Below the pieces are notes generated by a model. It had not been told where the DNA came from. It saw only the letters and a list, made by a program, of their open reading frames with translations, and ran no database searches. From an uncultured Candidatus Saccharibacteria bacterium (lineage in GTDB: Bacteria; Patescibacteriota; Minisyncoccia; Phycocordibacterales; EsbW-18): 64,000 nucleotides of DNA. Position 1 is the first letter of the stretch. Each line of letters begins with the position of its first letter. The DNA is taken from NCBI GenBank assembly GCA_964447415.1, contig CAYUSN010000001.1, positions 33,735 through 97,734 of the forward strand, in the 5' to 3' direction. Positions 2,081-62,742 of this stretch are shown here, one piece after another. The position numbers and the translations under genes are program-made.

Positions 2081-2101
2081 GGAGTTGGACACTCCAACAG
2101 T

Positions 2102-3435: not shown

Positions 3436-3502
3436 ATTGTGGTGTGTGCAGTGAAATTTAACCTAAAGTAACACTTTGTAACACTTTTTGAGTCTACCTT
3501 TT

Positions 3503-3585
3503 GGTGTGTGTAGAGATGTTAAGTTTTTAATACTCCTACTTTTTACTACTTTTTCTACCCCCTCCCCCTACGACTTCCACCAAGA
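3503..3585. repeat. conserved 3' coding end plus 3' flank shared by two paralogous secreted-protein genes (copy A)
   Basis: About 85% identical to 4757-4838; covers the last ~6 codons (WWKS*), a C-rich tract and AAAAAGTAG repeats (mRNA sense). Confidence 0.5.
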
Positions 3586-4710
3586 AACAAAAGCACCCCA
3601 GAGCGTTTTGAATAAACCTTGTTTTACTTCTTGATCTGCTTCTCCTTTACTTGCCTCGGAGGTATCTGCCTTTTCTTGTCCTTGAACAATCACAATCCCA
3701 AAAAGTGACTTTGACACCCACCCTATAACCTTTTCACCCGTTCCACCTGCGTCAGTGGTTCCTTCTATGCGATACCACTCACCATCTTTATATTCTCCTG
3801 TGACAACCAGGTTTGAACCCTCAGCATAGTAACGGATTACTCCACAGTCTTGAGATGGGCATTTACGGAACTTTGCTGAGGTAGTGAGCGTACCAATTGC
3901 ACTTAAGGGTTTGATATCGTCTTCCGGAACGTCGAAGTTGGTTTCGACATTTTTTACCTCAATTGGCGGAGGGGTAAAGTTGGGCGTTACTTGCAATACC
4001 TGATTGTTTTGAGTTTTTATGCATGAGGTTTGCGATGAATTCCACTCGTATCCAGATCGGCAATAACAGAGTTCCGAATCACCATATGAATTCGGACCAA
4101 ATTGAATCTGACAGGCCTGGCTAGTTGTAATACAAACGTCATCAAGAGCGAGGTAACCATCATTACAAAAACACTCTGATCCGACTAGTGAGGCATTCTC
4201 TGGACAAGAGGTTTTAAAATCGGTTGACGAGTATCCGTAACTACCATCCGAGCTTTTGGGAATATCCTTAAAAACCACATCCTCCATGTCTCGATTTGGA
4301 GATATAAATGAGTTTTTTGCACACGCTATGGCTTCATAGGTATTAATCGAAGGAAACTTGGCGGTGTTTATCGTTAAATAACCAACGAATTTGTAACCAT
4401 CGTCGACAATGATTGGTGGATTGCTAGCGTATTCATTAAAGGCGCTTTGAGAACTATATTCACTGCCAAACTTCCCATATTCATTAAAGATGGAATCGGA
4501 TTTGTATTCGCTTCCGGCACCATATTCATTGGCAATAGAAAGACTGTTGTATTCATTTCCAATTGCTCCAATAAATATCCACTCATCGAAGTCATACCCA
4601 AAAATTGCCATCCCATCTACATCAAAACAAGAGAGTGAAGACGCTACTGCGGTATTCAGCGAAAAAAGAAAGAAAAGGCTGGCTATAAAATATTTAAGAT
4701 GCTTATCCAT
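3568..4710 (-). CDS. secreted Cys-rich protein with SH3b-like domain and conserved C-terminal tail (GLFKTLWGAFVSWWKS)
   Basis: 380 aa; N-terminal signal peptide; NEY(G)xGSEY repeats; many Cys; 'KDGEWYRIEG...GWVSKSL' is SH3b-like; the C-tail is shared with ORF 4821-5516. Confidence 0.5.
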   Translation of the reverse strand: MDKHLKYFIASLFFLFSLNTAVASSLSCFDVDGMAIFGYDFDEWIFIGAIGNEYNSLSIANEYGAGSEYKSDSIFNEYGKFGSEYSSQSAFNEYASNPPIIVDDGYKFVGYLTINTAKFPSINTYEAIACAKNSFISPNRDMEDVVFKDIPKSSDGSYGYSSTDFKTSCPENASLVGSECFCNDGYLALDDVCITTSQACQIQFGPNSYGDSELCYCRSGYEWNSSQTSCIKTQNNQVLQVTPNFTPPPIEVKNVETNFDVPEDDIKPLSAIGTLTTSAKFRKCPSQDCGVIRYYAEGSNLVVTGEYKDGEWYRIEGTTDAGGTGEKVIGWVSKSLFGIVIVQGQEKADTSEASKGEADQEVKQGLFKTLWGAFVSWWKS

Positions 4711-4756
4711 AGATTTCTGTTTTATCTATCAGGAGATAGGTTGGGTTTATTTTTCA

Positions 4757-4838
4757 GTGTGTGCGGAGAGGTTAAATTTTAAATACTCCTACTTTTTCCT
4801 ACTCTTCCTACCCCCCCCCTCTACGACTTCCACCACGT
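4757..4838. repeat. conserved 3' coding end plus 3' flank (copy B)
   Basis: Aligns with 3503-3585. Confidence 0.5.
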
Positions 4839-5489
4839 AACAAGGGCTTCCCATAAAGTTTTAAATAACCCTTTTTTCTCTGACTGATTTTTTGCGACAT
4901 CCTCACTGATTATGTCTACGGTGTCCGTAGCCGTCGCCGATGACTCTTCAATATTGCGCTCATTGACTGGTTCCGGTTCAATATCGACTTGAACCATAGG
5001 GCGAGGTTCTTCAACGCTTACCGGCGGTGGAGGGGGCTGAATTACGCTCTCTACGGGTGTTTCTTCAACCAACGGCGGGGGTGTCATTAGAGATTCCTGG
5101 TAGGCTTTCTCACCTAAAGCGACACATTCGTCATAAACCTTTTGAACATCGTCGTTGTACTCACGGATTGCTTGGCTCTGGTCTAACAACAGCGCGTCTT
5201 GTCGATCTTGAGAGTCACGTATTAATTTTGCTCTCTCTGCATCCATAGAAGATTGGCTCATTGCCCTAGTCTTCAGCTCTTCTAAATTTTCTAAAAGACT
5301 CCTCTGTTCATTTTCAATGTCTATCGTGTACTGTTCAATGGTCTTCTGTTGCGCCTTGAGTCTATAGTCATAAGCGAGATCATCATATTGGTCTTGGGTA
5401 CACAAAAAATCCGCCTGTGCGAGAAATGGTATTGCCCCCAGAAAAAGTGAAGCTACCAATATTTTTTTTATACCGAGGAAATTTTTCAT
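4821..5489 (-). CDS. secreted coiled-coil / Pro-rich protein with conserved C-terminal tail (GLFKTLWEALVTWWKS)
   Basis: Signal peptide (MKNFLGIKKILVASLFLGAIPFLAQA); alternative upstream start at 5516; same 18-aa tail as ORF 3568-4710. Confidence 0.45.
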   Translation of the reverse strand: MKNFLGIKKILVASLFLGAIPFLAQADFLCTQDQYDDLAYDYRLKAQQKTIEQYTIDIENEQRSLLENLEELKTRAMSQSSMDAERAKLIRDSQDRQDALLLDQSQAIREYNDDVQKVYDECVALGEKAYQESLMTPPPLVEETPVESVIQPPPPPVSVEEPRPMVQVDIEPEPVNERNIEESSATATDTVDIISEDVAKNQSEKKGLFKTLWEALVTWWKS

Positions 5490-5497
5490 AAAATTTA

Positions 5498-6367
5498 TTA
5501 GCCTTCGCACGCCCATCCATCACCGTCTCTGTCGAGCTTAAATTCATCGTATCCGAGAACCTGAACCTGTCCTGTGTAGTTTGGCCCATCGCCAGATCCA
5601 CCAGAACAATCGTAATCGCCTGCGTTTTGCTTCAAGCAACCGGAATAATTTGGATTACATTGCGACGATGCCTTTGCCGGCTTTGGAATTACAGGTGCTG
5701 GAGCTACAGGAATAGGGGCAGGTGCCTTCTCCTCTTCACATACCCCTGAAGCCCAGAGGCCCTTTTTGTTTATTTCTGCATTTTTTTGAGCAAGCTTAAA
5801 CTCATCCTGATATTTGTACGGGAGATCGTAAGTATATTCATATGCATATCCCTCTTTAATCATCAGAAGGTTAAAGTTGGTTCCATCTTCGAGAAAAACA
5901 TACCTAAGTAACCTGTCATATTTGTCCCTCTCTCCCTGGGTATTATCACTTTCCAAATATACATTCTTCCCCGTCAGTACTAGTTTTGCTTTATTAGAAG
6001 CTTCCGCACCGAAACACTCTACAGGCTTCCTAGGATCAACTGTTTCTGGAGTATCTATACCAATGAGCCTTAACCTTTCAACTTTCCCGTCGATAGAAAC
6101 GTCGATAGTATCTCCGTCCACCACCTTAACCACACCGTATGCCTGTTGGGTGAGTGTTTTTGGAGAGGTGCTCGTGGCTTCTGGAACAACGGAAGTCGTA
6201 ATATCCTCCAGCACCTCTGCTTGATTGTTTTCACGACCCCAATAACTAAACCAGCTAAATGGATTCCACCATACAGCCAGTGCTAATTGTGGGGCAAAAA
6301 TGCCAAGCGCTAGGATTAAAACGAGAACTCTCTTTAATTTTTCAGCACTCATGATTCCACGATACAC
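5498..6367 (-). CDS. secreted thermonuclease (SNase/micrococcal-nuclease fold) with C-terminal Excalibur Ca-binding domain
   Basis: 289 aa; signal peptide; 'GKVERLRLIGIDTPE' SNase core; C-terminal 'DCSGGSGDGPNY...DRDGDGWACE' Excalibur-type DxDxDGxxCE. Confidence 0.7.
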   Translation of the reverse strand: MYRGIMSAEKLKRVLVLILALGIFAPQLALAVWWNPFSWFSYWGRENNQAEVLEDITTSVVPEATSTSPKTLTQQAYGVVKVVDGDTIDVSIDGKVERLRLIGIDTPETVDPRKPVECFGAEASNKAKLVLTGKNVYLESDNTQGERDKYDRLLRYVFLEDGTNFNLLMIKEGYAYEYTYDLPYKYQDEFKLAQKNAEINKKGLWASGVCEEEKAPAPIPVAPAPVIPKPAKASSQCNPNYSGCLKQNAGDYDCSGGSGDGPNYTGQVQVLGYDEFKLDRDGDGWACEG

Positions 6368-6429
6368 CTGATAAACAGGAAAACAACAGGTATTGAAAAG
6401 TGTATATTTTTATGGGATAGTGCACTCAA

Positions 6430-7557
6430 ATGAGTATGAAAATAATGGATTCTCGAAATTTCTATCTCCTTTGGTACTTCTCAAAACACGATAAGTGGAA
6501 ACAGATGATGGAGATCTCATATGGAGGCCACTACGAAATGCCTATTGAGCCTTTTTGTAGTCAATACTACAAGGATTTTGTTTGGCTACTGGATGAGGGT
6601 TTTATCACAATAGAAGGGCTTTCATTTGTTGGTAATCAATTTTACAAAGAAATAAAACCCAGACTTTTATCTGCTCTAGATGGAAAACTAAGAAAAATCC
6701 TCGAAAAGAACAAATTCGGATATAAGGATTTCTTTTTACTTGAAGAGGCTTACAAGCAACTGATAGGTAACGGGAAAATACCTATCTCCATAATCATGCA
6801 CTCCCAGAGTTTGAGGGACTACCTTATGGACCCTGATTCAAAAATAAAAGTCCCGGATAAGGAAAAACTAGAGGGATATATTCAAAACTATTCTAAAGTA
6901 ACCGTACAGGAGTCAAAAATTACAGTTGGTTATGAACAGCTCTCTTTGAAAGATTTTTTTACTCTTGATTTGTTAAATTCCAAATACAAAGAGTACTGCG
7001 AACGTGAGTGTGGAAAATATGTTTACCCAACTGGTTCAAAAGAGGCCATCCGTGAATGTTTGGACTCAGAAATTCGTACAGTGGAAGATTCGGCAATATT
7101 CGATTTTGATAACATTTCCTTTCTGCTTCCATCCATGTACTACCTTGAAATGTTGGGCGCACTTGAAATCATTGAAATAGATGAGAATGAACAGGGTTAT
7201 TTTGATGTTCGATATAAATTAACTGGAAATATTCCCACCACCCTCAAGGACTCTGTTTATCTAATTGAATGTACAAAAAAGGATAGTGCAAATATGTTTG
7301 AAATTTACATAAACGGTGACAGAAAAAAACCAATTTCGGTAAAGTACGGTGAACGCTACGCGAAAGTAATCTATGAGATAGCCAATAAAGGGTTTTACCA
7401 ATCTATGGGTGCACACGAAAAAAAATTAGTTCGAGATTATATAAGATATTTTGTTGAAAAGAAGTTGCCAAAAAATTTAGCGGGGGTAAAAATAACCAAT
7501 GAACATCGAGGAAAATTTACTGCCTCGGCAGAAACAGAAATAACAATGAAAAAGTAA
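6430..7557 (+). CDS. hypothetical protein (375 aa, no recognisable motifs)
   Basis: Long AT-rich ORF with coding-like composition; no Walker or other motif seen. Confidence 0.4.
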   Translation: MSMKIMDSRNFYLLWYFSKHDKWKQMMEISYGGHYEMPIEPFCSQYYKDFVWLLDEGFITIEGLSFVGNQFYKEIKPRLLSALDGKLRKILEKNKFGYKDFFLLEEAYKQLIGNGKIPISIIMHSQSLRDYLMDPDSKIKVPDKEKLEGYIQNYSKVTVQESKITVGYEQLSLKDFFTLDLLNSKYKEYCERECGKYVYPTGSKEAIRECLDSEIRTVEDSAIFDFDNISFLLPSMYYLEMLGALEIIEIDENEQGYFDVRYKLTGNIPTTLKDSVYLIECTKKDSANMFEIYINGDRKKPISVKYGERYAKVIYEIANKGFYQSMGAHEKKLVRDYIRYFVEKKLPKNLAGVKITNEHRGKFTASAETEITMKK

Positions 7558-7558
7558 T

Positions 7559-7603
7559 TTCCGAAAAAGTTCCGAAAAGTTCCGACTTCAATTCCGAAAG
7601 TGG
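7559..7603. repeat. tandem TTCCGA(A)AAG-type repeats (4 copies)
   Basis: tttCCGAAAAAGTTCCGAAAAGTTCCGActtcaaTTCCGAAAG between two ORFs; operator-like. Confidence 0.4.
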
Positions 7604-7644
7604 ACCCCTAAAATACAGATACTAAGTAGTCTGTTTTTTTATTT

Positions 7645-7896
7645 ATGCAGATGGAACATGAAAAGGACTTATACCGCGTATCTGATCTAGCGCTTGCATC
7701 AACTCTTTTATGCCTTGGGTGCAGGCTTTGGGCAACAGACCGTTCAGATGAGAGGAGGGTTTCCTTTGTCTTTGAGAGAAACGAGGGACTAGACGAAATA
7801 CTGGAGAATTACTGGACAGGCCAGCTCCGTGTGGAGCCCGTGGCCTTTTTTAGTGCTGTTAAACAGGCTAAAAACAGGATTTATAGCGAATATTAA
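7645..7896 (+). CDS. small phage-like hypothetical protein
   Basis: 83 aa; '...RVSFVFER...ENYWTGQLRVEP...KNRIY' resembles small phage proteins (DUF5659-like); weak. Confidence 0.3.
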   Translation: MQMEHEKDLYRVSDLALASTLLCLGCRLWATDRSDERRVSFVFERNEGLDEILENYWTGQLRVEPVAFFSAVKQAKNRIYSEY

Positions 7897-7900
7897 TCAA

Positions 7901-8116
7901 ATGCCCACCAGAGACGACATAACCAGGTTTCAGGAGCTTTACAGAGAGCATTTCGGAACCGAAATCAGCAGAAAAGAGGCCCTTGAGAAAGGTGCGGGGC
8001 TATTGCGGTTTATGTCGCTTATTTATAGACCAATGGGCAAAGACGAGTTGAAGATTGTTCAAAAGCAAAGAGCCAACACCCTCCATTTATTACAAGAACG
8101 GATTACTAATTTGTAG
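7901..8116 (+). CDS. small hypothetical protein (start moved to the internal ATG at 7901 of ORF 7829-8116)
   Basis: 71 aa beginning MPTRDDITRFQELYREHFGTEISRKEALEKGAG...; the upstream part of the tracked ORF overlaps the previous gene. Confidence 0.3.
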   Translation: MPTRDDITRFQELYREHFGTEISRKEALEKGAGLLRFMSLIYRPMGKDELKIVQKQRANTLHLLQERITNL

Positions 8117-8124
8117 AAACTAAT

Positions 8125-8358
8125 ATGCGTAGTATCGAACGGAGATTTAAAAACTTTCAAACAAAATCAGGAGGATTGAGCAGTTACATGAACTTTGCAC
8201 AAGCAATCTCCGGACAGGGATTCAGTGAGAATAATTTGAGTCGATGGTTCAACAAACTCGTAGAAAAAGATGACTACGATAAGAAAGATCGAAAACAGAT
8301 TATCAAGAATCTCGTACTCCTTTCAAAACCATCTGAGGAGCACCTGTTTGAGGTATAG
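8125..8358 (+). CDS. small hypothetical protein
   Basis: 77-aa ORF in a tightly packed same-strand run. Confidence 0.3.
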   Translation: MRSIERRFKNFQTKSGGLSSYMNFAQAISGQGFSENNLSRWFNKLVEKDDYDKKDRKQIIKNLVLLSKPSEEHLFEV

Positions 8359-8420
8359 GAAGCCACTCAGAAGAACGTTTTATCAGAGCGTGGAGGCAAT
8401 CATCATGAATATGAGAAAGT

Positions 8421-8855
8421 ATGAAAAAAGGATGGATTAAACAATACCGGAGGGATATAGATGACCTCAGAGATTTAACAGAGCCTGAGTATCGTTACTA
8501 CACACTCTCCTGCTTATTTGCTGTATGGGATACAAGAAATAAGCTTTTTGGAACGTTTGACGCACGAACAAAAACAATAAAAGCAGAGCTTCTTCCGAGC
8601 TGGTCTACTGGAAAAATCAACACAACAAAAAATCTCCTCATAAAAAGAGGTTTCTATAAAAAAGTTCCTGACAACCGACTACACATTACAAACGCGAGGA
8701 TTGTTTTTGGTAAGAGTAGGGATGTTGAAAATCTGGTTCAGAATTATGAAGGTAATATTCGTGTGGATGAAAAAGAGATTCAACAGGCTGAAAATCGCCT
8801 GAGTAGTATCGTGGATATGAAAAGGAATCTAGCAAATAGAAAGAGGGTTTCTTGA
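8421..8855 (+). CDS. hypothetical protein
   Basis: 144-aa ORF, basic. Confidence 0.35.
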   Translation: MKKGWIKQYRRDIDDLRDLTEPEYRYYTLSCLFAVWDTRNKLFGTFDARTKTIKAELLPSWSTGKINTTKNLLIKRGFYKKVPDNRLHITNARIVFGKSRDVENLVQNYEGNIRVDEKEIQQAENRLSSIVDMKRNLANRKRVS

Positions 8856-9008
8856 GATTGACATTCACATAACTGAAAACACCTCTCAAGTTAAAGAAAT
8901 ACAGAGAAATACAGAGAAATCTAAATAAACAAAAACCCCAGAAAGTAACTGCTTAACAGTTAAAAAACAGTGAGAGACAGGATGCCTTTTAAGAGATATA
9001 CTATCTAT

Positions 9009-9114
9009 GTTGACCCAAGCGCAGGCACAATCCGAAGTTTTTTTCTTACCTCGTTGCCCTAAAGGGGCGGTCTGCCAACGAGGCTACTCTTCGGAGCAAG
9101 CGCATTGGGTCAAC
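9009..9114. promoter_or_regulatory. ~106-nt nested imperfect palindrome 50-150 bp upstream of the serine recombinase gene (candidate recombination site or structured leader)
   Basis: GTTGACCCAAGCGCA (9009-9023) pairs with TGCGCATTGGGTCAAC (9100-9114); inner CCGAAG/CTTCGG and CCTCGTTG/CAACGAGG arms; apical CCCTAAAGGG. Confidence 0.45.
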
Positions 9115-9162
9115 CAGACCGTCCCTTTAGAGTTTCTGGGTTATTAGCCTTAATACACCCAT

Positions 9163-10782
9163 ATGAGTATTGATAAGAATCAACCAATCAAATACTTCCT
9201 GTATGCTCGGAAATCCTCGGAAAGTGAAGATCGACAGGTTCAGTCGATTGATGATCAGATAAACCGTCTTAAAGAACTGGCGAAGAACCTACATATTCCG
9301 ATAAAAGAAATCCTCACCGAGGCAAAGACCGCAAAGAAACCACACTGCAGACCGGTCTTTGCACAAATGCTCGAACGTATCGAGAAAGGTGAGGCCAGTG
9401 GAATCCTTTGTTGGCAAATAAACCGTCTCTCTAGAAATCCAATCGACAGCGGAAAGTTGGGATGGATGCTTCAGCAAAACATTTTACAGTCCATTCAAAC
9501 CATTGACCGTCAGTATCTCCCTGACGACAACGTACTCCTGTTCAGTGTAGAGAGTGGGATGGCGAACCAGTTCATTATCGATCTGCGCAAAAACAGCCGA
9601 AGAGGTATGGAAGGAAAAGCCGACCGAGGGTGGCTCCCCTCCCGAGCACCGTTGGGGTATTTGAATGACAAGCTGAAGAACACGATTGTTAAAGACCCTG
9701 AACGTTTCGATCTCGTACGAAAGATGTGGAATCTCATGCTTACAGGCAACTACACGCCATCTAAAATATGCGACATTGCAAACAAAGAGTGGGGTTTTCA
9801 GACATCGCAAACAAAGCGTAGTGGTGGAGGAGAACTTGCGCTTAGCGTTTTATACAAAACATTCGCAAACATTTTCTACACAGGAAAATTTGAATGGGCT
9901 GGAAGAGTTTACGAGGGCAACCATGAGCCAATGGTGAGCTTGGAGGAATACGACCGTGTACAGGTAATTCTTGGGCGTGAAGGTAAGCCACGATCTAAAA
10001 CGCACGACTTTGCATATACAGGACTCATGCGTTGTAGTACGTGCGGTTCAATGTTCACAGCAACTGAGAAAAAGAAGTTTATACAAAGCACCGGTGAGAT
10101 TAGAACCTACGTTTACTACCACTGCACCAGAAAAAACAAGAATGTGCGGTGTAACGAAAAGAGCATCACCCTTGAAGTGCTCGAGGGTCAAATTGAGGCT
10201 GAGCTAGAGAGATACGCAATACTTCCCCAATTCCAAGAGTGGGCTATTGAGATCCTTAACCGTGATAACGACAAAGAGATTCAAGAGAGAACCAAGATAT
10301 ACGAGGCACAGCACAAGGCAATCGTGGGCGCACAAAAAGAATTGGATTCACTAACTCAAATGCGGTACAGAGACCTTATCGACGATGAAACCTTCATTCG
10401 GGAACGTGACACCTTAAAAGAAAAAATATCGACACTCACCAACAATCTAAGAGAGACAGAAGATAGGAGTAAGAAATGGTTAGAACTTACTGAGAAAACA
10501 TTTAACTTTGCGTGCTACGCCCGTAAAGAGTTCCTTTTTGGAGACCTCAACAAGAAACGAGAGATCTTCTCGGCACTTGGCTCGAACTTTTCTGTAAAAG
10601 ACCAGAAAGTACGCATTGAAGCCAACGAATGGCTCGTACCTATCGAAAAAGCCTACCCAGAGCTAGAACTTGAGTACAATCGGCTCGAACTAGATAAAAC
10701 CCTTGATACAGCAACACGAAATGAACGTTTTGCTGAACTTATTCTCTCTTGGGGTGCCTACTGGGAATCGAACCCAGATTGA
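9163..10782 (+). CDS. large serine recombinase/integrase (resolvase catalytic domain + recombinase domain + Zn ribbon + coiled coil)
   Basis: 539 aa; 'YARKSSESEDRQVQSIDDQ' catalytic-Ser region; 'CSTCGS...YYHC' Zn-ribbon; the last 33 nt overlap tRNA-His on the opposite strand. Confidence 0.85.
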   Translation: MSIDKNQPIKYFLYARKSSESEDRQVQSIDDQINRLKELAKNLHIPIKEILTEAKTAKKPHCRPVFAQMLERIEKGEASGILCWQINRLSRNPIDSGKLGWMLQQNILQSIQTIDRQYLPDDNVLLFSVESGMANQFIIDLRKNSRRGMEGKADRGWLPSRAPLGYLNDKLKNTIVKDPERFDLVRKMWNLMLTGNYTPSKICDIANKEWGFQTSQTKRSGGGELALSVLYKTFANIFYTGKFEWAGRVYEGNHEPMVSLEEYDRVQVILGREGKPRSKTHDFAYTGLMRCSTCGSMFTATEKKKFIQSTGEIRTYVYYHCTRKNKNVRCNEKSITLEVLEGQIEAELERYAILPQFQEWAIEILNRDNDKEIQERTKIYEAQHKAIVGAQKELDSLTQMRYRDLIDDETFIRERDTLKEKISTLTNNLRETEDRSKKWLELTEKTFNFACYARKEFLFGDLNKKREIFSALGSNFSVKDQKVRIEANEWLVPIEKAYPELELEYNRLELDKTLDTATRNERFAELILSWGAYWESNPD

Positions 10783-10825
10783 GAGCTCCACAAGCTCCAG
10801 TGTTGACCGTTACACCATAGGCACC
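10750..10825 (-). tRNA. tRNA-His (anticodon GTG), with G-1 and genomically encoded CCA
   Basis: Manual cloverleaf: G-1 + GTGCCTA acceptor, D-stem GTGT/ACAC, anticodon loop TTGTGGA, T-loop TTCGATT, 3' ...TAGGCAC-C-CCA. Confidence 0.8.
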
Positions 10826-10953
10826 ATGCGGGACTACTGTACCGAAAAAACGGCGCGAAAGCGAGTGGTTAGTAGCGACGTAGAGCGAGCGAAACGAAAA
10901 AGTAACCTTTTTCATTTCCGAGCCGAGGAGCTAGTATAAGGGCGAAGCCGCTT

Positions 10954-35213: not shown

Positions 35214-36314
35214 CTATCGGTTCATTGGCATCACAATATATAGAAATGATTTATCCCCAACCGAACGAATACACGTCGGCTTTCCTTGTCCGGCAAACTG
35301 CAATACCACACTGTCTGATGTAATTGATTGTAGGCCGTCGAGTACATATGCGTAGTTAAAATTCATTTCAATGTCTTCTCCGTTAACTGCAGCATCTAAA
35401 CACATCTCACCCTCTCCTGTTTCCGGGTTTGCTGTTTTTATACCGCATGTTTTTTTACTATGTGAAACCGCAACGGTTAATTTATTAAACTGATCGGAAA
35501 AAATACGAACATGCTTCAACGCATCCGCAAGATCTTGTTTTAGAAGTGTTATTTCCGTTGTAAAACTTTTCGGAATAATTTGTTTATAGTCAGGAAATAC
35601 ACCCTCCACCGCGCGTGATGTTATATATTTATTTTCCAATACAAAACCTATTTGATGTACGTCGCCGGTTACGGTGACATCTCCGTCGAATGTGTCTAAG
35701 TGGCGGAGCATCTCTCCGACGTTTTTAAGTGGTATAAGAAGCGTCTCTAGTCCCTGGATTGTGTCCGCTTTTACCCGCTTCTCCGCGAGTCGGAATGAGT
35801 CTGTGGCAACACACACAATATACCCCCCGTCATTGTAAAGGTAGACGCTTGAGAGCTCCGGTTTAATACTTCCCAACGAGGCACCCCACCAGACGCTTTT
35901 TAGACCGTCACAAAGTGTTTTTGCTGAAATAGAAAAGAGTTTTTTTGAGGAAAGTTTTGGAAGCGCCGGAAAATCCTCATGTGAAAGTGTTGCTACCCGT
36001 GTCGTACTTTTTTGCGTACCGACGGTAATATATAACCCCTCTGTGGTGATAGTAACCGAACCTGAGGCGGTGAGTGTTCCTAACAGCGCACCAAGCGTGT
36101 CGGCAGGCACTGCAACCACACCATCCTCTTCAACCTCCGCCGGAACAGTTATTTCAATACCGAGATCTAAATTGGTCGCCCGTACCACAACCGTATTTCC
36201 TGAGGCAGTCAGAAGTACACACCGTAGTACCGGTAGTGAAAGATTTTTTCCTGCAACCCTCTCTACACCAACAACGGCGTTATACAGGTTTTCTTTTTGT
36301 ACGGTTATTTTCAT
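35214..36314 (-). CDS. dnaN: DNA polymerase III beta sliding clamp
   Basis: 366 aa, three-domain clamp pattern, directly downstream of dnaA. Confidence 0.85.
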   Translation of the reverse strand: MKITVQKENLYNAVVGVERVAGKNLSLPVLRCVLLTASGNTVVVRATNLDLGIEITVPAEVEEDGVVAVPADTLGALLGTLTASGSVTITTEGLYITVGTQKSTTRVATLSHEDFPALPKLSSKKLFSISAKTLCDGLKSVWWGASLGSIKPELSSVYLYNDGGYIVCVATDSFRLAEKRVKADTIQGLETLLIPLKNVGEMLRHLDTFDGDVTVTGDVHQIGFVLENKYITSRAVEGVFPDYKQIIPKSFTTEITLLKQDLADALKHVRIFSDQFNKLTVAVSHSKKTCGIKTANPETGEGEMCLDAAVNGEDIEMNFNYAYVLDGLQSITSDSVVLQFAGQGKPTCIRSVGDKSFLYIVMPMNR

Positions 36315-36535: not shown

Positions 36536-37906
36536 TTATAACAACGCACGCACTTGGGCAATTTCCTGTTCAAGTTGGTGATCATTTTTTAAATCCTCTT
36601 TTACTTTCTCGTAGGAGTGAATTACGGTGGTGTGGTCTCTTCCGCCGAGTTTTTGTCCTATCATCGGATACGGAAGACTAAAATCCTCACGAAGCAAATA
36701 CATAATAATTTGCCGCGGCTTTACCACCTCTTTTTTTCTGCTTTTTTTATAAATACTGTCCTCATCCAAACTGTAAAAATCGGCGACAATCTTTACCACA
36801 TCCTTTACCGACACCATTTTCTTCGGTTTGATGTTGTTTTTAATTACCTCCCGTATTTCCTGTAGATTTAAATCACGTTTTTTAAGCTGAATCTGACACA
36901 CAATTGAATTGAGTGCCCCCTCAATCTCCCGGATATTACCCTCGATGCTGTTGGCGAGGTGGGTCACCACATCATCCGACAACACAATATTGTGTTCGGT
37001 GGCCTTTGTTTTTACGATGGCGAGACGGGATTCCTGGTCCGGCGGAGGTATATCAACCGTCATACCCGCGTTAAACCGCGATTTTAAGCGGTCTGCGAGG
37101 CTTTGGATGTAATTTGGGTGTCGGTCAGATGAAAAAATAATCTGTCCGTTACGGTCAAAAATTTCGTTAAACAGATGAAAGAGCTCCTCCTGGGTTTTTT
37201 CTTTATTTGAGAGAAATTGAACGTCGTCCATGATGAGCACATCATACTTCCGGTATTTTTCCTTGAAGTTATTAACCGCATTAATTTGAATGGCGTTGAC
37301 CAAGTCCTGCGCAAAACGCTCCGAGGTGACATAAAAAACTTTTTTGTCCGGATATTTCTTTTTTATTTCATTTCCAAGCGCCTGTATGAGGTGTGTCTTT
37401 CCGTGACCGGTCTGTCCGTAGACAAAAAACGGATTGTACCGAAGGCCGGGTTTCTCCAAAATTGCCTGCGCGGCCGCGTGTGCAAGTTCGTTAAACGATC
37501 CGACAACAAAAGAATCAAATGTATACCGCGGGTTGAGGTTGTCCGCTTTGTTGATATATAAATCGCGCAGCGGAAGTTCGTCCCCTGTCGTCCCCTGCTG
37601 CTGGGATGAGTATGAGGAGATTTTTGTGTCACTCGGCGCCTTTGTGGAGATAACATACTCAACCGACCGGATGGTGTAGGAGATGTCGCGGAGTGTTTTG
37701 AGTACCATTTTGTGGTACTTGTCGGCAATAAGGTCTTTGGTGAACGCGTTGGGAACGCCGACAAACACTACCCCGTCTTCAACCTTGACGACGTGGGTGT
37801 CTTTAAACCACGTTTTAAAGATTGCCTTAGAAACCAAAAACTCTATTGAGCCGAGCACCTGCTTCCATAAGTCTTTTGTGTCTGTGGGGGTGATGGTGTC
37901 GGTCAT
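36536..37906 (-). CDS. dnaA: chromosomal replication initiator DnaA
   Basis: 'NPFFVYGQTGHGKTHL' Walker A, 'VLIMDDVQFL' Walker B, C-terminal HTH 'MYLLREDFSLPYPMIGQKLGGRDHTTVIH'. Confidence 0.9.
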   Translation of the reverse strand: MTDTITPTDTKDLWKQVLGSIEFLVSKAIFKTWFKDTHVVKVEDGVVFVGVPNAFTKDLIADKYHKMVLKTLRDISYTIRSVEYVISTKAPSDTKISSYSSQQQGTTGDELPLRDLYINKADNLNPRYTFDSFVVGSFNELAHAAAQAILEKPGLRYNPFFVYGQTGHGKTHLIQALGNEIKKKYPDKKVFYVTSERFAQDLVNAIQINAVNNFKEKYRKYDVLIMDDVQFLSNKEKTQEELFHLFNEIFDRNGQIIFSSDRHPNYIQSLADRLKSRFNAGMTVDIPPPDQESRLAIVKTKATEHNIVLSDDVVTHLANSIEGNIREIEGALNSIVCQIQLKKRDLNLQEIREVIKNNIKPKKMVSVKDVVKIVADFYSLDEDSIYKKSRKKEVVKPRQIIMYLLREDFSLPYPMIGQKLGGRDHTTVIHSYEKVKEDLKNDHQLEQEIAQVRALL

Positions 37907-55921: not shown

Positions 55922-56929
55922 ATGAAAGATAAGATTCTCGCGAAACGCTTCTGGAAGCACGTTCTTTTTCGTTTCGCGGTCTCGGTGTTGCCCTTCGTCT
56001 CGTACGGCGGGCTTCTTGGTATGTACGGCGCGCTGCCCTCAGTCGGCGCCCAGGAGGAGTTCCCAAACGTACACCTAACCTCAATTTCTATGCCGCTGTT
56101 GCAGAGCACCGGAAACCCGAACCCGAAGCTTGCCGTTGCCTCACCTTCCAACATCGTTGCCGGTGTTGCGCTGGCGTCAGATAGCAATCCAATGGCCGAT
56201 GAAGCGCGAAAAGCGTCCTCGGACCAGATTTCCGTGTACGTTGTCCGTGAGGGTGACACGCTTTCTCAGATTGCCGACATGTTTGAAGTTTCAATCAACA
56301 CTATCCGCTGGGCCAATGACATGACCGGAAAATCAACAATCCGCCCCGGTCAGACGCTCGTGATTTTGCCCGTGACCGGCATCCGGCACGTGGTGAAGAA
56401 AGGCGACACCATCAAGAGTATTGCCAAAAAGTATAAGGGTGATGTGGGTGAGATTCTCTCCTACAACGGTTTCGAAGAGGACGTGCAGCTGACAATCGGA
56501 CAGGAGGTCATTGTGCCTGACGGAGAAATTGCCGCGCCGACAAGTAGTGGAGGCGGTGCACCGCGCTCATACGCCGGTCCGTCGTACGCCGGATACTACC
56601 TGCGCCCGGTTAACGGTACTCGTTCGCAGGGGTTGCATGGACACAACGGTGTTGATATTGCGGCACCTGCCGGATCGCCGATTTACGCAGCGGCGGCGGG
56701 AGAGGTTATCATCGCAAGCACGGGAGGATGGAACGGAGGGTACGGAAATTATGTCGTCGTGAAGCATAGCAACGGCACGCAGACGCTCTATGCGCACAAT
56801 TCAAGTAACGCGGTATCGGCAGGTCAGACGGTAGCGCAGGGAGATGTTATCGGGTACGTGGGGTCCACGGGACGCTCAACGGGATCACACGTGCACTTTG
56901 AAGTCCGTGGTGCGGCGAATCCGTTCTAG
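55922..56929 (+). CDS. LysM-domain (x2) + M23-family metallopeptidase (cell-wall hydrolase)
   Basis: Two 'Y.VR.GDTL..IA' LysM repeats; 'HNGVDIAAPAGSPIYAAAAGEV', 'GNYVVVKH', 'YAHNS', 'TGRSTGSHVHFEV' M23 motifs. Confidence 0.85.
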   Translation: MKDKILAKRFWKHVLFRFAVSVLPFVSYGGLLGMYGALPSVGAQEEFPNVHLTSISMPLLQSTGNPNPKLAVASPSNIVAGVALASDSNPMADEARKASSDQISVYVVREGDTLSQIADMFEVSINTIRWANDMTGKSTIRPGQTLVILPVTGIRHVVKKGDTIKSIAKKYKGDVGEILSYNGFEEDVQLTIGQEVIVPDGEIAAPTSSGGGAPRSYAGPSYAGYYLRPVNGTRSQGLHGHNGVDIAAPAGSPIYAAAAGEVIIASTGGWNGGYGNYVVVKHSNGTQTLYAHNSSNAVSAGQTVAQGDVIGYVGSTGRSTGSHVHFEVRGAANPF

Positions 56930-57035: not shown

Positions 57036-57660
57036 TTATGCGAGCAATACTTTCGGGCGGTACTGGAGCGCTTCAAGAATATGCGGTGTGCCCACATCTT
57101 CGGCGTTTTCCAAATCGGCAATCGTGCGTGCAATTTTTATGACGCGGTGATAGCCGCGGGCGGAAAGCTCAAGCGCCCCCGCTGATTCATTGAGAAGCGT
57201 GCGTGTCTGCGTATCAAGCGGAACGAATGTGTCGAGGTCGCGCACCGACATCTCGCTGTTCTTCTTTTTTCCTGTGTCGCGCAGTCGTATCTCCTGTATG
57301 GCGCGCGCACGGATAACACGTGCGCGTATGTCTTCGCTCGTTTCTCCCGACGGTGCGCGTGACAGGGCTTCGTGTGCAACAGGCGCAACTTCCGTCCACA
57401 AATCAATACGATCCATCACAGGACCCGACATTTTTCGCTGGTATCGCGAAAGTATGTGCGGAGAACAGGTGCACGCACGAGCACTTCCCCACTTTCCGCA
57501 CGGACACGGATTAAATGCAACGACGGTAAGCGCGTCTGCGGGAAACAGCGCTGAACCTTTTGCGCGCGAAACCGAGACAATACGTTCTTCAAGCGGCTGA
57601 CGGAGCGCTTCGATAACACGACGGTCAAATTCGGGAAATTCGTCCAGTATTTCTGTCCCA
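57036..57660 (-). pseudogene. comM: comM/yifB (Mg-chelatase-like AAA+ competence protein) 3' fragment: Walker B through C-terminus only; the N-terminal ~285 aa are replaced by inserted AT-rich DNA
   Basis: 'GTEILDEFPEFDRRVIEALRQPLEE...AFNPCPCG...GPVMDRIDL...YHRVIKIARTIADL' matches the ComM C-terminal half; the tracked ORF's first ~30 aa derive from the AT-rich insert. Confidence 0.7.
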
Positions 57661-57701
57661 CAAACCTTTAGAAAAGATGTCAAAAAAGGTAAAATTACCC
57701 C

Positions 57702-59363
57702 ATGACAACCCATCCCCACGATGAAGCAGAAAGCCAACGAGCTAAACACACGAGCGACATTTTGGGGTCTAAATCCGAGAAAATTGTTGTAGTTGCTGGG
57801 CCTGGAACAGGTAAAACTTTCCTTTTCAGTAAAATCCTTGAGGGCAAAACAGGAGGCAACACACTGACCCTCTCCTTCATAAATGCCCTCGTAGATGATT
57901 TGTCCCTCGGCTTATGTGGTCTTTCAGAAGTAAAGACCTTGCATGGATTCTCGATGTCTACCTTAAATGGAGCTGGCAAGACAAAGATTAAGATTTTTCC
58001 AAAACTTTGTGAGGTCATTAAAAAAGACGCAGAAATGCTCTTAGGAAAGAAAGTGGATTTTGAAAAAATGTTCCAAACAGGAGAAGCAGACGAAGATCTT
58101 ATTACCTTTTACAAAAAAAGAAAAGACTCATATGGCTCTTTTTATGGATTCTCAGACGCTGTTTATGCAGTTGTGAAGTATATGGAAGCGTACCCAGATA
58201 AGATTCCTGCCTTTGCTCAGATTGTTGTCGATGAATTCCAGGATTTCAATAAGATAGAAGTAAGCCTTATTGAACTACTTGCCTCAAAGAGTCCAATTGT
58301 GATTGCTGGGGATGATGACCAGTCTTTATATGTCGATTTAAAGAGTGCTAGTCCAGAATTTATTAGGGAGATTCATGGGCCAAAGCGTCCTGAGTATGAA
58401 TCTTTTAATTTGCCTTTTTGCTCTCGTTCTACGCAGGTAATCGTAGAAGCAATAAACGATGTAACGAGCAAAGCAAAAGAGAATGGCCTGTTGGATGGAC
58501 GGGTCGAGAAACCATATCAATACTTCACTTGTAAGGATAAAGATAAGGAAAGCACAGCAAATCCAAAAATAGTTCACGCACAGGTATTTGAAAAAGCCGT
58601 GCCGCAGTTCATTCAAAGCGAAATGTGCGAAATTGCAAAAACCGAGCGCAAGAAAGTAAGTGTCCTGGTCATTATCCCTCCCCAACTTAAGAGTCGTTTA
58701 TTACCTTACTACTCGAAGAAGCTCAAAGAGAAAGGATTTAAAAATATTGCCAGTGTTGATTCATCTTCAAATAAGGGATTAACACTCATGGATGCTCTCC
58801 ATCTCTTATTAGATGATAATAAATGTGAACTCGCTTGGCGCATCGTTGCACAGACTCTACTAGACGAAAAAGACTTCAAGACCCTATTAGAAACAACGAA
58901 TAGTGGTAAAAAAGTATCAGAACTTCTATCAAAAGATATAAAAAAGCAGGTAAATGAGTATGTGCAGTGCCTTAAAAAGATTCGTGACGAAAAGGAATGC
59001 GATACCGAGAAACTTGACGAACTATTTAAAGCAATAGGGATTGACCCACTTCAAATCGCATCCGAAAAAATCAAAGAAGAAATTCAAAGTAAGGATTGGA
59101 ACGGAACCAGCAGGAGAGAAATTAAAGAAATGGATATTGCAGTGACTACAATACCTAGTTCAAAAGGACTAGCGGCAGATTATGTTTTTATTACCCACTT
59201 TGACCAACCTTACTTTTCTCAAAAAGGAAAAGTGACTGATGGAGATGTATATAACTTCCTGGTCGCGCTCACTCGCGCTCGTAAGAAGGCATATTTGATT
59301 TCTACTCAAGAGAAGAATCGCCCCACAATCTTGGATTGGATAGATAAAGACCGTATCCAATAG
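57702..59363 (+). CDS. UvrD-like SF1 helicase (compact, 553 aa) carried on the inserted element
   Basis: 'VVVAGPGTGKTFL' Walker A, 'IVVDEFQDFN' Walker B, and the C-terminal 'SSKGLAADYVFI' motif VI-like. Confidence 0.7.
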   Translation: MTTHPHDEAESQRAKHTSDILGSKSEKIVVVAGPGTGKTFLFSKILEGKTGGNTLTLSFINALVDDLSLGLCGLSEVKTLHGFSMSTLNGAGKTKIKIFPKLCEVIKKDAEMLLGKKVDFEKMFQTGEADEDLITFYKKRKDSYGSFYGFSDAVYAVVKYMEAYPDKIPAFAQIVVDEFQDFNKIEVSLIELLASKSPIVIAGDDDQSLYVDLKSASPEFIREIHGPKRPEYESFNLPFCSRSTQVIVEAINDVTSKAKENGLLDGRVEKPYQYFTCKDKDKESTANPKIVHAQVFEKAVPQFIQSEMCEIAKTERKKVSVLVIIPPQLKSRLLPYYSKKLKEKGFKNIASVDSSSNKGLTLMDALHLLLDDNKCELAWRIVAQTLLDEKDFKTLLETTNSGKKVSELLSKDIKKQVNEYVQCLKKIRDEKECDTEKLDELFKAIGIDPLQIASEKIKEEIQSKDWNGTSRREIKEMDIAVTTIPSSKGLAADYVFITHFDQPYFSQKGKVTDGDVYNFLVALTRARKKAYLISTQEKNRPTILDWIDKDRIQ

Positions 59364-59401: not shown

Positions 59402-61154
59402 TTACACACCTCCTTTTGTGTGGTACATGCCTGGATTAGCAACAAGTAAATCACGGCTTCGCTCGTGCTGGCTCAATGTTTTGATGTGCAAAATAAGTCT
59501 CATGTTGTCCTGCTGTGAAACAGGCTCGATGTGTTTATCACTCATTACACGTGTCGAAACGGGAAACCTAAAGAATACCTCTGCATAGTTCTTCTTAGGG
59601 AATAGGTTAATCCTCTCAATGAACAGACGGAGTATGTATTGCTTGTCCTCGTAGCTGACATTTTCCAGTCTCGTCTTGATTTGCTCATACAATTTTTTAA
59701 GCACGACCCCTCTGTCTTTCCGTTCGTCACGTTTAATGAGTACCTGTTCAAATTTAGCTTTCTGATTCTCCATTGCTTCAATGTTCTCGTTACACTCCCT
59801 CAAGTGTTGTTCACACTCTTTCTCTGGAAGACTCTTAAACATGAAAGCTCTGGTAATCCGAGCACGTTGTTCTAGGAGTGATTTGATTTGCTTTTCACAC
59901 TGAGCAATCTTCTCCTTTGCCTTGTCTGCATTTGAATTCTTGAATGTGTACTCTTCCAGTTTTGGTATCACATTCTCAGGGTCTTTAAGTATGGAAACGA
60001 GACACTCCCAAATCGGCTCGAGTCGTGTCTCGGCGTACTGGTATCGCACAAATTTATTCTCTGGATTATTCGCGTTCTCTAACATATGTGTGATAGTACT
60101 TTCCTAGTGTTCGTGAATCCTTTCCAATTTTTGGGGTTTGATACCCACTCTGCAACTTGTTACCTGTCTCTCCACAATAAAGGAGTGTTGAATACAGGTA
60201 TGGTCTCTTGGTGTTTCGCTTTGAGTTCTCTCGATTCTTTTTGAGTTGTTGGATTGAAGCCTGAAACATCTCCTTGCTAATAATCTGCGGAACTTTAATC
60301 GGTATCCACTCTTCCTCTGGTCTCTGATGTTCTTCTTCCAGTACAGCGTCAAGATACTTAAATGGCCTCTTGTACTTTCTGTAGTAGAAGTCGCCCGTGT
60401 ATACCTCGTTAACTAACAGCCGATTTATGCTCCGCTTCCACCAGTAGTTAAACGTCTTTCGTTTCTTCTGTGTGTTGTGCTTCGGAGCTGGCATTTCCAA
60501 TTGGTTTGCTCGCTTTGTGATTTCAGTGAGTGAGCAACGCTCGTACACAAGCCAGTGATAGAACTGCTTCACGACCTCAGCTTCCTCTGGGATGATGTGT
60601 AGTTGCTTTGTTTTCTTATCTACCTTGTAGCCATAGGGAGGAACTCCTGTGACCCACTTGTTGTCTCGTGCGGCCTGTTCACGTCCTCCACTCATTCGTT
60701 CCCTAATAACTTCTCGTTCAAGCTCCGCTAGGCTTCCCAGCATTTGAAGAACAAACCTACCGTTTGGGGTACTGGTATCGAATGATTCAGTACATGACTT
60801 AAATTCAATGCCCAACTCAAGAAGTTTCTCTACGGCGTCCAGAAGCTTTCTCGTGCTTCTAAAGAATCTGTCGAGACGATAGACGATGACGATATCGAAT
60901 TTCTTAGCTTTTGCATCCTCGAACAACTGCTTCAATCCCTCACGTTTCTCGATAGCAAGTGAACCTGACTTTCCCTCGTCTCCATAAGTGAGTATCGTTT
61001 CGTTGTCATAGATATCTGGCTGGCTCTCGCAGAACTTTTGTAGTCGTTCTTTTTGTACCTTGATTCCATACTTGTCGTCCTTTGCCTGCTCATCAGTAGA
61101 GACTCGCGTGTATAGTGCAACCCTCTTCTTTTGTATTTTTAATTCACTTTGCAT
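59402..61154 (-). pseudogene. large serine recombinase split by a frameshift (ORFs 61154-60066 and 60085-59402) with degenerate Zn-ribbon ligands
   Basis: N-terminal 'VALYTRVSTDEQ' resolvase domain + recombinase domain; the Zn ribbon reads CGETG...YYHT (Cys lost); the coiled-coil tail continues in another frame with a 20-nt overlap. Confidence 0.55.
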
Positions 61155-61576
61155 GGCTTTTTGTTTCCACGTTCAAACTCCACTAAGAGCCGGCCCGCGA
61201 CCTCAGTGAATTTGCCGACCATGTCTAATGTTTCTGTTGCCGACATCAAAACCACGTTATGGTTTTGTAATATCTCCATGAGCTTACACATCTGTTGAGT
61301 ATCACGATAGATTCTGTCCAACCTGTAGACTGCTAGGATGTCGAACTTTCCTTGCCCAATATCTTTTAGGAGTCGATTTAGTGCAGGTCTATGTGTTGCA
61401 GGTAGAGAACCTGAATATGCCCGGTCTACATATGTGTTTTCTTCTTTGACCTGTAAGTTTTGCGCTTCACAGGATTCAAGAACAGTTGCCTTTTGGACAT
61501 CCACTCCGTTGCGTTGCCAATCGGTAGACGTTCGTAGGTATATAGCTACTCTCTTGTTCGTTTGTTCTTTTTTCAT
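61139..61576 (-). CDS. small serine recombinase (resolvase catalytic domain only, no HTH)
   Basis: 145 aa; 'VAIYLRTSTDWQ...', 'ILAVYRLDRIYRD', 'GVVLMSATE'. Confidence 0.75.
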   Translation of the reverse strand: MKKEQTNKRVAIYLRTSTDWQRNGVDVQKATVLESCEAQNLQVKEENTYVDRAYSGSLPATHRPALNRLLKDIGQGKFDILAVYRLDRIYRDTQQMCKLMEILQNHNVVLMSATETLDMVGKFTEVAGRLLVEFERGNKKPCKVN

Positions 61577-61722
61577 AATTTTATGTTTGTGAACCTCACT
61601 ACCAGTCGTCCGTTTTTATTTTTGACATTGAACTTCTTAGTCTTTGGAAACCCTGCATTATTGAGCAGGTCTCGTACAAAGCTTTCTGGGGTGAATTTCT
61701 TAGTTTTGGTTTGTTTTTTCAT
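61573..61722 (-). CDS. 49-aa lysine-rich basic protein, stop overlapping the resolvase ATG (ATGA); candidate recombination directionality factor or DNA-binding accessory protein
   Basis: MKKQTKTKKFTPESFVRDLLNNAGFPKTKKFNVKNKNGRLVVRFTNIKL; not in the ORF track (<60 aa). Confidence 0.4.
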   Translation of the reverse strand: MKKQTKTKKFTPESFVRDLLNNAGFPKTKKFNVKNKNGRLVVRFTNIKL

Positions 61723-62037
61723 ATTCCTATAAAATGGCTTAGGTAAGCCGTTTATAGGACATATTAGATAAGGTAGTTACAACTATGTACAGGTGTCCTG
61801 TCTATAAGCCCTTCTGTGATTCGCGCGCGTAGTTTTCAATTTCTCCTTCTGGAAGGAAAAACAAACTATCTGCTACATGGCTCATTTCAAACTACATTTC
61901 CAGCAAACAAACCATTTTGTAATTTATTTTTTGTTAATAATCTATCTATTGTCTGAACCACCATGAGTACACTTTTCCGCATTCTGCATGAATCAAATCT
62001 ATCCAACTTTGAATCACCATGATTCACGCAAGTGTAC

Positions 62038-62742
62038 TTATAGAGATATCCTTGGCCCTTCTTGGTCTTTCTGCCTCTGCACATATGCCACCAAGCTTGC
62101 CCACTTCCTTTCCAAATCTACTGGTGAGCCAATCACTGGTGCATACTTCTTTCCATTTGTGACTCCCACAAGAGATATCGCTTGCTCCACCATATCCACT
62201 CCATAATGCTTAATGAGTTTTTCTATTGCTCGCACCTGTCTTTTTTCTTCCTTAAACTCATCCGTCTTGTGGTGTGCAATCAACCTAAACATCTCAATCA
62301 TCCTCTCCGCCTCCGTAGTCAATGACACCTTAACGTCCTCCGCCTCGCCCTCGACCGCTTCCGCAAGGACCAAGCTAATGTCATTTGTTTTGTATTTTGA
62401 CCTGTGAACCACGATGAATCCTTTTTCTTCGAGAGCTTTTAATGCTCTTGGAACTTGTGCCTTGCTTACGCCCGCTCCCTTGTTCCTTTCCCCGATACCT
62501 GACACAAACTGGCTAATGCTAATTTTGTCCCTCGTTTTTAAGTAGCCGTATGTGTTCCGAAGAATGAAGTCCAGACACTTTTGTTCGGCTCCGCTAAGTG
62601 AATGCCACCATGACTCAAGAATTGTTGGATACTTGAAGAAGTCCCTCTTGTACTCCTTTTTGAATCCGGGGAATCTCTTATTCTGTTCATGGTTGTTATT
62701 TGTCATGCGCTCCGTTCTTGAGATCTCCTGGAAAGGGTTCAA
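62038..62742 (-). CDS. winged-HTH DNA-binding protein, putative replication-initiation/replisome-organiser-like
   Basis: 'SLSGAEQKCLDFILRNTYGY...ISISQFVSGIGERNKGAGVSKAQVPRALKALEEKGFIVV' wHTH pattern. Confidence 0.4.
   Translation of the reverse strand: MNPFQEISRTERMTNNNHEQNKRFPGFKKEYKRDFFKYPTILESWWHSLSGAEQKCLDFILRNTYGYLKTRDKISISQFVSGIGERNKGAGVSKAQVPRALKALEEKGFIVVHRSKYKTNDISLVLAEAVEGEAEDVKVSLTTEAERMIEMFRLIAHHKTDEFKEEKRQVRAIEKLIKHYGVDMVEQAISLVGVTNGKKYAPVIGSPVDLERKWASLVAYVQRQKDQEGPRISL

Follow-up and report, generated by a model that had tools for sequence, protein, structure and literature searches.

A large serine recombinase gene with a conserved division into two reading frames in comM-inserted elements of Patescibacteria

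Background

Is a recombinase gene that is interrupted by a change of reading frame a relic in decay, a recoded gene for a single protein, or a pair of genes that together specify one enzyme? This question is raised by a locus in a stretch of 64,000 nucleotides (contig CAYUSN010000001.1 of assembly GCA_964447415.1, positions 33,735 to 97,734, from an uncultured member of the Patescibacteriota), hereafter the window, to which all positions given below refer. The locus encodes a large serine recombinase (LSR), which is distributed over two overlapping open reading frames (ORFs) of the minus strand. Both in basic studies and in their engineering into genome-editing tools, serine integrases have been treated as enzymes of a single chain, in which the coiled coil decides the direction of the reaction. 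Here we present evidence that the frame break is a shared trait of a clade of LSRs, whose best reading from comparative sequence analysis is a two-polypeptide LSR, divided within a disordered loop that replaces the second zinc knuckle.

The first of the two frames, ORF1, encodes the 362-aa LSR-N (61154-60066, minus strand), and the second, ORF2, the 227-aa LSR-C (60085-59402, minus strand), which lies in the +1 frame relative to LSR-N. They overlap by 20 nucleotides (60066-60085), with the ATG of ORF2 at 60085-60083 and the TAA of ORF1 at 60068-60066. The original prediction, made from the sequence of the window alone, had described these two frames along with a lysine-rich 49-aa ORF and a 145-aa ORF restricted to a catalytic domain, and had regarded the LSR as a likely decaying integrase. 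All four ORFs are present in the minus strand, and the anatomy proposed for them, namely the split, the lost cysteine ligands, the catalytic-only ORF and a small basic ORF coupled through an ATGA overlap, was verified together with its coordinates. The interpretation as decay fared differently, as detailed below.

Domain architecture and the loss of zinc ligands

The catalytic domain of LSR-N is recovered over the full length of the Pfam Resolvase profile (PF00239, E=3e-39) and displays the motifs YTRVSTDEQ and RLDRFFR. It is followed by helix E, the recombinase domain (PF07508, E=1e-16, residues 189-307) and the first β-hairpins of a zinc-less 'zinc' domain, and the protein terminates in ...GKYYHTYVRERE. 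The zinc-domain fold is completed in LSR-C, which further comprises the coiled-coil motif and a C-terminal β/α region. The two proteins match contiguous parts of the integrase profile PHROG 95, with LSR-N covering positions 84-401 and LSR-C positions 419-572. An AlphaFold2 (AF2) model of the conceptually fused LSR-N and LSR-C (mean predicted local distance difference test score, pLDDT, of 82) assumes the complete LSR architecture and aligns over its whole length to cryo-EM structures of serine integrases (E=1e-20), the structural matches being to the SPbeta-type, Bxb1, PhiC31 and Listeria LSRs. In this model the coiled coil is formed by helices 409-438 and 444-471 (fusion numbering), both encoded by ORF2. 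Taken together, the profile matches and the model indicate that LSR-N and LSR-C jointly constitute one complete LSR.

The zinc domain in the window reads LLYCGETG...GKYYHTYV, as against CGKC...YYHG...RCEWC in zinc-bearing relatives. Only the first cysteine of the four zinc ligands has been kept and the other three are gone, while the elements of the fold are still predicted by AF2; a Pfam scan gave no match of the window integrase to the zinc-ribbon PF13408. The loss of ligands had thus been read correctly in the original prediction, where it was also counted as a sign of decay. Mapping the ligands by alignment shows the same loss in unsplit relatives: the CxxC...CxxC pattern is intact in distant full-length proteins (P0053, P0098 and P0118), the first cysteine pair is gone in intermediate relatives (P0011 and similar proteins), and the first cysteine alone is retained in the full-length protein P0002 and in the split clade. 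As it is also seen in unsplit relatives, the loss of zinc is not a sign of decay but an older trait of the lineage that predates the split. The break in the gene lies in the zinc-domain loop that marks the former place of the second zinc knuckle. In the AF2 fusion the junction residues 357-371 follow the KYYHT strand and lead to the QYA strand, next to which comes the ETRLEPIW helix; no loop of the second DNA-binding domain is modelled with less confidence (pLDDT ~56). ORF2 residues 372-404 supply one strand and helices of the zinc-domain fold.

Conservation of the split and selection on both halves

Database searches with the conceptually fused LSR-N and LSR-C protein as query recovered two classes of matches. 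The first comprises full-length proteins of ~585-607 aa with identities of at most 56%, and the second 19 distinct proteins of ~360 aa with identities of 60-95%, which correspond to ORF1 only and end at ...LGKYYHTYV. DNA was retrieved for twelve split-type loci (L100, L106 and L107 among them), ten of which reach past ORF1. In each of these ten the next ORF is one of 223-235 aa in the +1 frame, which overlaps ORF1 by 20, 26 or 29 nucleotides. The window hence shares its split with 10 other retrieved elements at amino acid identities of 60-97%, and LSR-C itself is 60-96% identical across the loci. A scan of metagenomes returned 15 loci; a scan of genomes with an LSR-N alignment returned mainly distant LSRs and only two members of the family. 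That at least 11 assemblies, independent of one another and derived from many samples, show the identical split argues against an assembly or frameshift error, and sequencing error as the cause of the frame break is ruled out by the conservation of the split.

A neighbor-joining tree rooted with an outgroup and computed for the region equivalent to ORF1 unites the 20 split N-halves in one monophyletic group, with the full-length P0002 as their sister. P0002 reads YYHTHVPEREGARSNIRVQYGESRL and aligns to the tail of ORF1 joined with ORF2 near the ORF1 stop. This arrangement fits a single ancestral split, which has been retained in the clade ever since. The ratios of nonsynonymous to synonymous substitution rates (dN/dS) are low for both halves, being 0.027 for ORF1 and 0.095 for ORF2 between the window and the related locus L001, and 0.074 and 0.144, respectively, between L102 and L105; in the remaining pairs synonymous sites are saturated, and dN is only 0.13-0.32. 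Neither half shows further stops or frameshifts in relatives down to 60% amino acid identity. These values indicate that both halves are under strong purifying selection, i.e. that they are functional coding sequence.

Insertion into comM and variable cargo

The host DNA of the window has a G+C content of ~52%, which falls to ~40% between ~57,650 and the end of the window and rises to the host level at comM. This low-GC region adjoins a comM gene of the Mg-chelatase/YifB family without its 5' half (57036-57644, minus strand; Mg_chelatase profile positions 108-205 and Mg_chelatase_C). From the low G+C content and the truncation of comM it follows that the locus is the integrase end of an integrated element, the far end of which lies beyond the window. 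At its attachment-site junction (57645-57664, minus strand) the conserved arm TTTGTGGGACAGAAATACTG is joined directly to the DEFPEF codons of comM. A closely related but distinct element, L001, with 90.7% nucleotide identity over the integrase genes, is found in a metagenome-assembled genome (MAG) of Candidatus Paceibacterota, and the best explanation for the locus is the recombination module of an integrative element that sits in comM of a Paceibacterota (Patescibacteria) chromosome.

We compared the junctions of those split-clade loci whose sequence reaches a comM fragment. In all of these, namely the window and eight further loci (L001, L081-L084, L101, L103 and L105), the comM fragment starts at one and the same point, ...(I/V)CGTE(I/V)LDEFPEF, in the Walker B motif, and the host comM fragments are 46-67% identical between elements. 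In the DNA the comM codons are preceded by a conserved arm of the element, TTTGTGGGACA... (57664-57645 in the window), and beyond it the sequences diverge completely on the side of the element. Fragments of comM likewise adjoin unsplit relatives (L002, L089-L091 and L096-L098). In the window the interval between LSR-C and the junction is occupied by a cargo gene for a UvrD-like SF1 helicase (57702-59363, plus strand; Pfam UvrD-helicase, AAA_19 and UvrD_C; PHROG 1967). The same slot differs from element to element and contains SduA_C, Abi_C, a helix-turn-helix with M78 peptidase, exonuclease VII, ATPase or other genes (L081-L084 and L102-L105); it looks like a hotspot for defence or accessory cargo. 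To judge from these junctions, the elements are, or were, mobile, with site-specific insertion into comM. They define, within the Patescibacteria, a family of elements with comM as their target; in bacteria of other phyla comM is already known as a target of mobile elements, whose insertions often carry defence systems and have been linked to reduced natural transformation (PMC11472951). On the host side a LysM/Peptidase_M23 gene (55,922-56,929, plus strand) adjoins comM in the window as it does in L081-L083 and L103, a case of conserved host synteny.

Expression of the second half: two chains or one

At a distance of seven codons upstream of the ORF2 start in the window a TAG closes the +1 frame, and any change of frame is thereby confined to 38 nucleotides. 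The ATG of ORF2 is embedded in all 11 split loci in the Tyr-Val codons TAT-GTN of ORF1 (TAT-GTT in the window). Of the 22 Tyr codons at the two neighbouring positions in the split loci only 13 are TAT, and the homologous Tyr of unsplit relatives is encoded by TAC in six of seven. In L100, ORF1 has Arg-Val (CGT GTA) at this place, and a GTG stands at the position of the ORF2 start. The stop of ORF1 is TAA in 11 of 11 split loci, the codon before it being GAA, AAA, CGA, AAC, AGA or TAT, and the tail of ORF1 and the head of ORF2 differ in length and sequence from locus to locus. An alignment of the split-locus junctions revealed no conserved slippery codon, and consensus folding of the same loci no conserved RNA structure across the junction. 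Furthermore, among the 26 window ORFs with a length of 250 aa or more, 25 lack a Shine-Dalgarno-like motif in the 25 nucleotides that precede the first ATG. Translation in this organism appears to start without Shine-Dalgarno pairing, and in view of these 25 ORFs a frameshift stimulated by such a motif is unlikely, and starts devoid of it are normal here.

We favour, at a probability of about 0.6 and on comparative sequence evidence, the synthesis of LSR-N and LSR-C as two separate polypeptides, a figure that includes the variant discussed below in which LSR-C acts as a regulatory subunit. Synthesis of LSR-C would begin at the invariant ATG of ORF2, through either direct initiation independent of Shine-Dalgarno pairing or re-initiation, whereby ribosomes that terminate 17-26 nucleotides downstream of the ORF2 ATG would restart there. 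The two chains would then assemble non-covalently and complete the zinc-domain fold, with LSR-C contributing the coiled-coil motif needed for synapsis of the attachment (att) sites, and the resulting two-chain enzyme would insert the element at the Walker B codons of comM.

The main rival reading is programmed +1 frameshifting within the 20-29-nucleotide overlap, which could yield a single integrase of ~585 aa and would make the 362-aa product a regulator or a by-product; recoding of this kind is known in transposases of insertion sequence (IS) families. In its favour, the +1 frame of ORF2 is constant, the overlap is short, and a shift near the ORF1 stop would restore a protein resembling the ancestral type, as seen in the unsplit sister P0002. 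Against this stand the lack of a conserved slippery codon, the occurrence of the TAA in varied contexts, the variable length of the overlap, the absence of a conserved RNA structure from the junction and a genome that does not use Shine-Dalgarno motifs; moreover, frameshifting leaves the invariant ATG or GTG in the +1 frame unexplained. The genes for prfB and the frameshifted IS transposases resemble the present locus in having two overlapping ORFs for one ancestral protein, but here neither a conserved shift site nor a stimulator accompanies the overlap, and ORF2 has an invariant start of its own. We accordingly hold a programmed frameshift to be unlikely. Two other routes to a fused product were considered and rejected: reassignment of the stop codon, because the junction needs a change of frame and not readthrough, and transcriptional slippage, because no homopolymer run lies within the overlap.

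Two separately made chains raise a further, decidedly speculative possibility, in which the enzyme is a natural two-subunit integrase and the ratio of its subunits would control integration versus excision. Translational coupling would fix this ratio, perhaps along with the co-translated 49-aa protein, and stoichiometry would take the place of the separate directionality factor of known systems. In the regulatory-subunit variant LSR-N alone would be the working recombinase, and LSR-C a separately dosed subunit that delivers the coiled coil in trans and sets the direction, integration or excision, through its amount relative to that of LSR-N. The split separates exactly the DNA-binding and catalytic part from the part with the coiled coil, which governs directionality in studied LSRs (background cited in PMC12286644), and no conventional directionality factor was recognised at the locus. 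Nevertheless, we regard this variant as improbable: ORF2 supplies a strand and helices of the zinc domain (residues 372-404) in the AF2 model, and as ORF2 carries this part of the fold the DNA-binding domain of LSR-N alone would be incomplete; the tight overlap, too, suggests co-expression in a roughly fixed proportion. Finally, the original view of a decaying, frameshifted pseudogene or an assembly error, which is natural if only the window locus with its frame break, lost cysteines and adjoining truncated recombinase is considered, is rendered highly improbable by the occurrence of the same +1 split in many independent assemblies, by the dN/dS far below 1 and the intact frames of both halves, and by the monophyly of the clade, with its full-length sister and with elements of varied cargo inserted at one comM site in diverged hosts.

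Several points weigh against a two-chain enzyme. The sequence evidence is also compatible with a low-efficiency +1 frameshift that gives a fused protein, and the conserved ATG of ORF2 could in principle be retained for another reason. The loci share ancestry, and the codon statistics and counts accordingly overstate their independence; the neighbor-joining tree is one without support values. The input of the AF2 model was an artificial fusion, and the model is not informative on the assembly of two separate chains. The integrations could also date from long ago, and activity could since have been lost in some of the recombinases.

Relationship to known recombination systems

By its domains and predicted fold the enzyme belongs to the LSR superfamily, from whose textbook form it departs in its zinc ligands and, apparently, in the single chain. 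Like the SPbeta SprA-type, Bxb1, PhiC31, Listeria A118/LI and TP901-1 LSRs, it has the same order of domains, with a catalytic domain that bears the Ser/Arg motifs, a long helix E and a coiled coil inserted in the second DNA-binding domain, and shares with them site-specific insertion into a gene and the location of the integrase near the end of the element. It differs from all of these in being encoded by two overlapping ORFs rather than as one polypeptide, and in a zinc domain with one of four cysteines and a break at the former second knuckle. Its closest unsplit counterparts are the comM-targeting LSRs of Patescibacteria (P0002, P0011 and P0053; L002, L089 and L096), which show 45-56% full-length identity and the same comM target but are encoded by a single ORF of ~585-607 aa and have TAC, not TAT, at the Tyr of the future ORF2 start. 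Along this lineage the zinc ligands have been lost progressively, and at least in L093 a small ORF lies upstream. In SCCmec elements the ccrA and ccrB genes are likewise adjacent serine-recombinase ORFs in one operon; however, CcrA and CcrB are two complete recombinases, whereas the window encodes one divided enzyme plus a 145-aa fragment. The NCBIfam CcrA, CcrB and CcrC models gave weak similarity, with all scores far below the family cut-offs.

A search of a representative library with LSR-C also recovered many short proteins that consist of the C-terminal coiled-coil region of LSRs only (P0128, P0131, P0141, P0143, P0180, P0196, P0204 and P0215). They are 21-37% identical to LSR-C and start, often with Met, at its boundary. 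They could be independent splits or artefacts of gene calling; the only genomic context retrieved, L108, is an uninformative contig of 654 nucleotides.

In the literature, coverage of which was incomplete, neither an LSR split in nature nor the present elements were found to be described, and this negative is weak evidence of novelty. Should the two-chain reading prove true, the second DNA-binding domain of an LSR, devoid of zinc, can be built from two chains, and the enzyme would provide a natural template for split, controllable integrases as well as a direct route to test the role of the coiled-coil half in trans. For annotation it means that frame-broken recombinase genes in MAGs should not be treated as pseudogenes by default.

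The 49-aa protein and the upstream control region

The recombinase operon runs from a conserved leader through the 49-aa gene, the 145-aa ORF (in the sub-lineage of the window only) and LSR-N to LSR-C. Its first gene (61722-61573, minus strand) encodes the lysine-rich 49-aa protein, with an ATGA in which its stop codon and the start codon of the following ORF overlap. A word-indexed protein search with this sequence gave one homologue, for which reason the family was assembled from the retrieved loci. A homologue lies directly 5' of LSR-N, or of the first recombinase ORF, in 12 of 12 split-clade loci, and its end reaches or overlaps the recombinase start. A profile built from these locus-derived homologues also matches one unsplit locus, L093. 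With a dN/dS of 0.061 between the window and L106, the 49-aa protein is present across the split clade and under constraint, which upholds the original suggestion of a real partner of the recombinase; the comparison of loci marks it as a genuine partner that is conserved with this LSR family. It matched no family in Pfam, NCBIfam or PHROG.

An AF2 model of the 49-aa protein, built from two sequences (pLDDT 79), predicts a basic tail, a helix and a β-hairpin. A Foldseek search of the PDB with this model returned nothing significant; five of the top nine matches are of the AbrB/MazE/SpoVT swapped-hairpin type, all with E >= 0.3. This modelled resemblance to AbrB/MazE-type DNA-binding proteins is a lead only. 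Directionality factors, for which no sequence motif is diagnostic, bind the integrase where zinc domain and coiled coil meet and reverse its direction. Those of LSRs, such as SprB and TP901-1 Orf7, are like the 49-aa protein small, basic and linked to an integrase, but the latter has neither sequence similarity nor significant fold similarity to them, and its coupling to the integrase would be unusual for a factor acting in excision only. It may be a co-translated accessory protein or regulator, which could autoregulate through the conserved block upstream of it, serve as a directionality factor or assist in DNA binding.

This non-coding block (61723-61810, minus strand), of ~85 nucleotides and directly 5' of the 49-aa ORF, shows 83-93% nucleotide identity to L081, L100 and L103, as compared with 67-74% for the coding DNA there. 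It contains GTTGTAC-like direct repeats spaced ~10 nucleotides apart (TATCTAATATGTCCTATAAA) and a GGCTTAnnTAAGCC hairpin with a T-run behind it, immediately ahead of the start codon of the 49-aa gene; this terminator-like hairpin lies at 61749-61736. From its conservation and motifs the block is probably a promoter/operator or leader of the recombinase operon. Consensus folding yielded only a 5-bp stem of weak energy, and with such weak support we do not claim an RNA element. Upstream of the operon lies a gene for a Phage_rep_O-like replication initiator (62038-62742, minus strand; Pfam Phage_rep_O E=1e-7; PHROG replication initiation O-like), which is conserved in related elements.

The 145-aa catalytic-domain ORF

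Between the 49-aa gene and LSR-N the window has the 145-aa ORF (61576-61139, minus strand), in which the Pfam Resolvase domain covers positions 1-125 of 145. The catalytic motifs are kept, and the protein ends 9 residues after an EFER motif, inside helix E, so that half of this helix and all DNA-binding domains are absent. It is consequently distinct from the small serine recombinases, which have a complete helix E and a C-terminal helix-turn-helix. It is 38% identical to the neighbouring LSR-N and 38-43% to catalytic domains across the family. Its relatives in the databases are one identical protein and one of 148 aa with 75% identity, and no others were found; the 148-aa protein likewise lies between the 49-aa ORF and LSR-N and has the same EFERG end. 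In most relatives the small ORF is coupled directly to LSR-N with no 145-aa ORF, and a degenerate 83-aa counterpart is seen in L001 (5745-5996) and L087. The original idea of a general split design composed of the small protein and a 145-aa resolvase is therefore not sustained: the 145-aa ORF is confined to the sub-lineage of the window, and the co-occurrence of the two does not extend to most other relatives.

The dN/dS of the 145-aa ORF is 0.19-0.20, as opposed to 0.026 for LSR-N, and its dN is ten times that of LSR-N with a similar dS. These substitution rates indicate a constraint that is relaxed but real. We suggest that the 145-aa ORF may be the 5' (N-terminal) relic of a displaced or duplicated recombinase gene, which would still be translated and possibly be modulatory, while being dispensable in other lineages. 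The 83-aa ORF of L001 is open from the ATGA overlap of the small ORF to 5 nucleotides before the LSR-N start, and selection may favour ribosomes that translate through this spacer.

Other features of the window

A second low-GC island occupies positions 1-10,950 of the window. It contains an intact LSR of 539 aa (9163-10782, plus strand), which bears a zinc ribbon and whose 3' end overlaps a tRNA-His gene (10750-10824, minus strand), together with a SocA/Panacea antitoxin-like gene (2514-3017, minus strand) and a gene for a secreted SNase/Excalibur nuclease (5498-6367, minus strand). Elsewhere, dnaN (35214-36314, minus strand) and dnaA (36536-37906, minus strand) are located in a low-GC stretch at the minimum of the cumulative GC skew, and the segment 35,200-37,900 is probably the region of the chromosomal replication origin.

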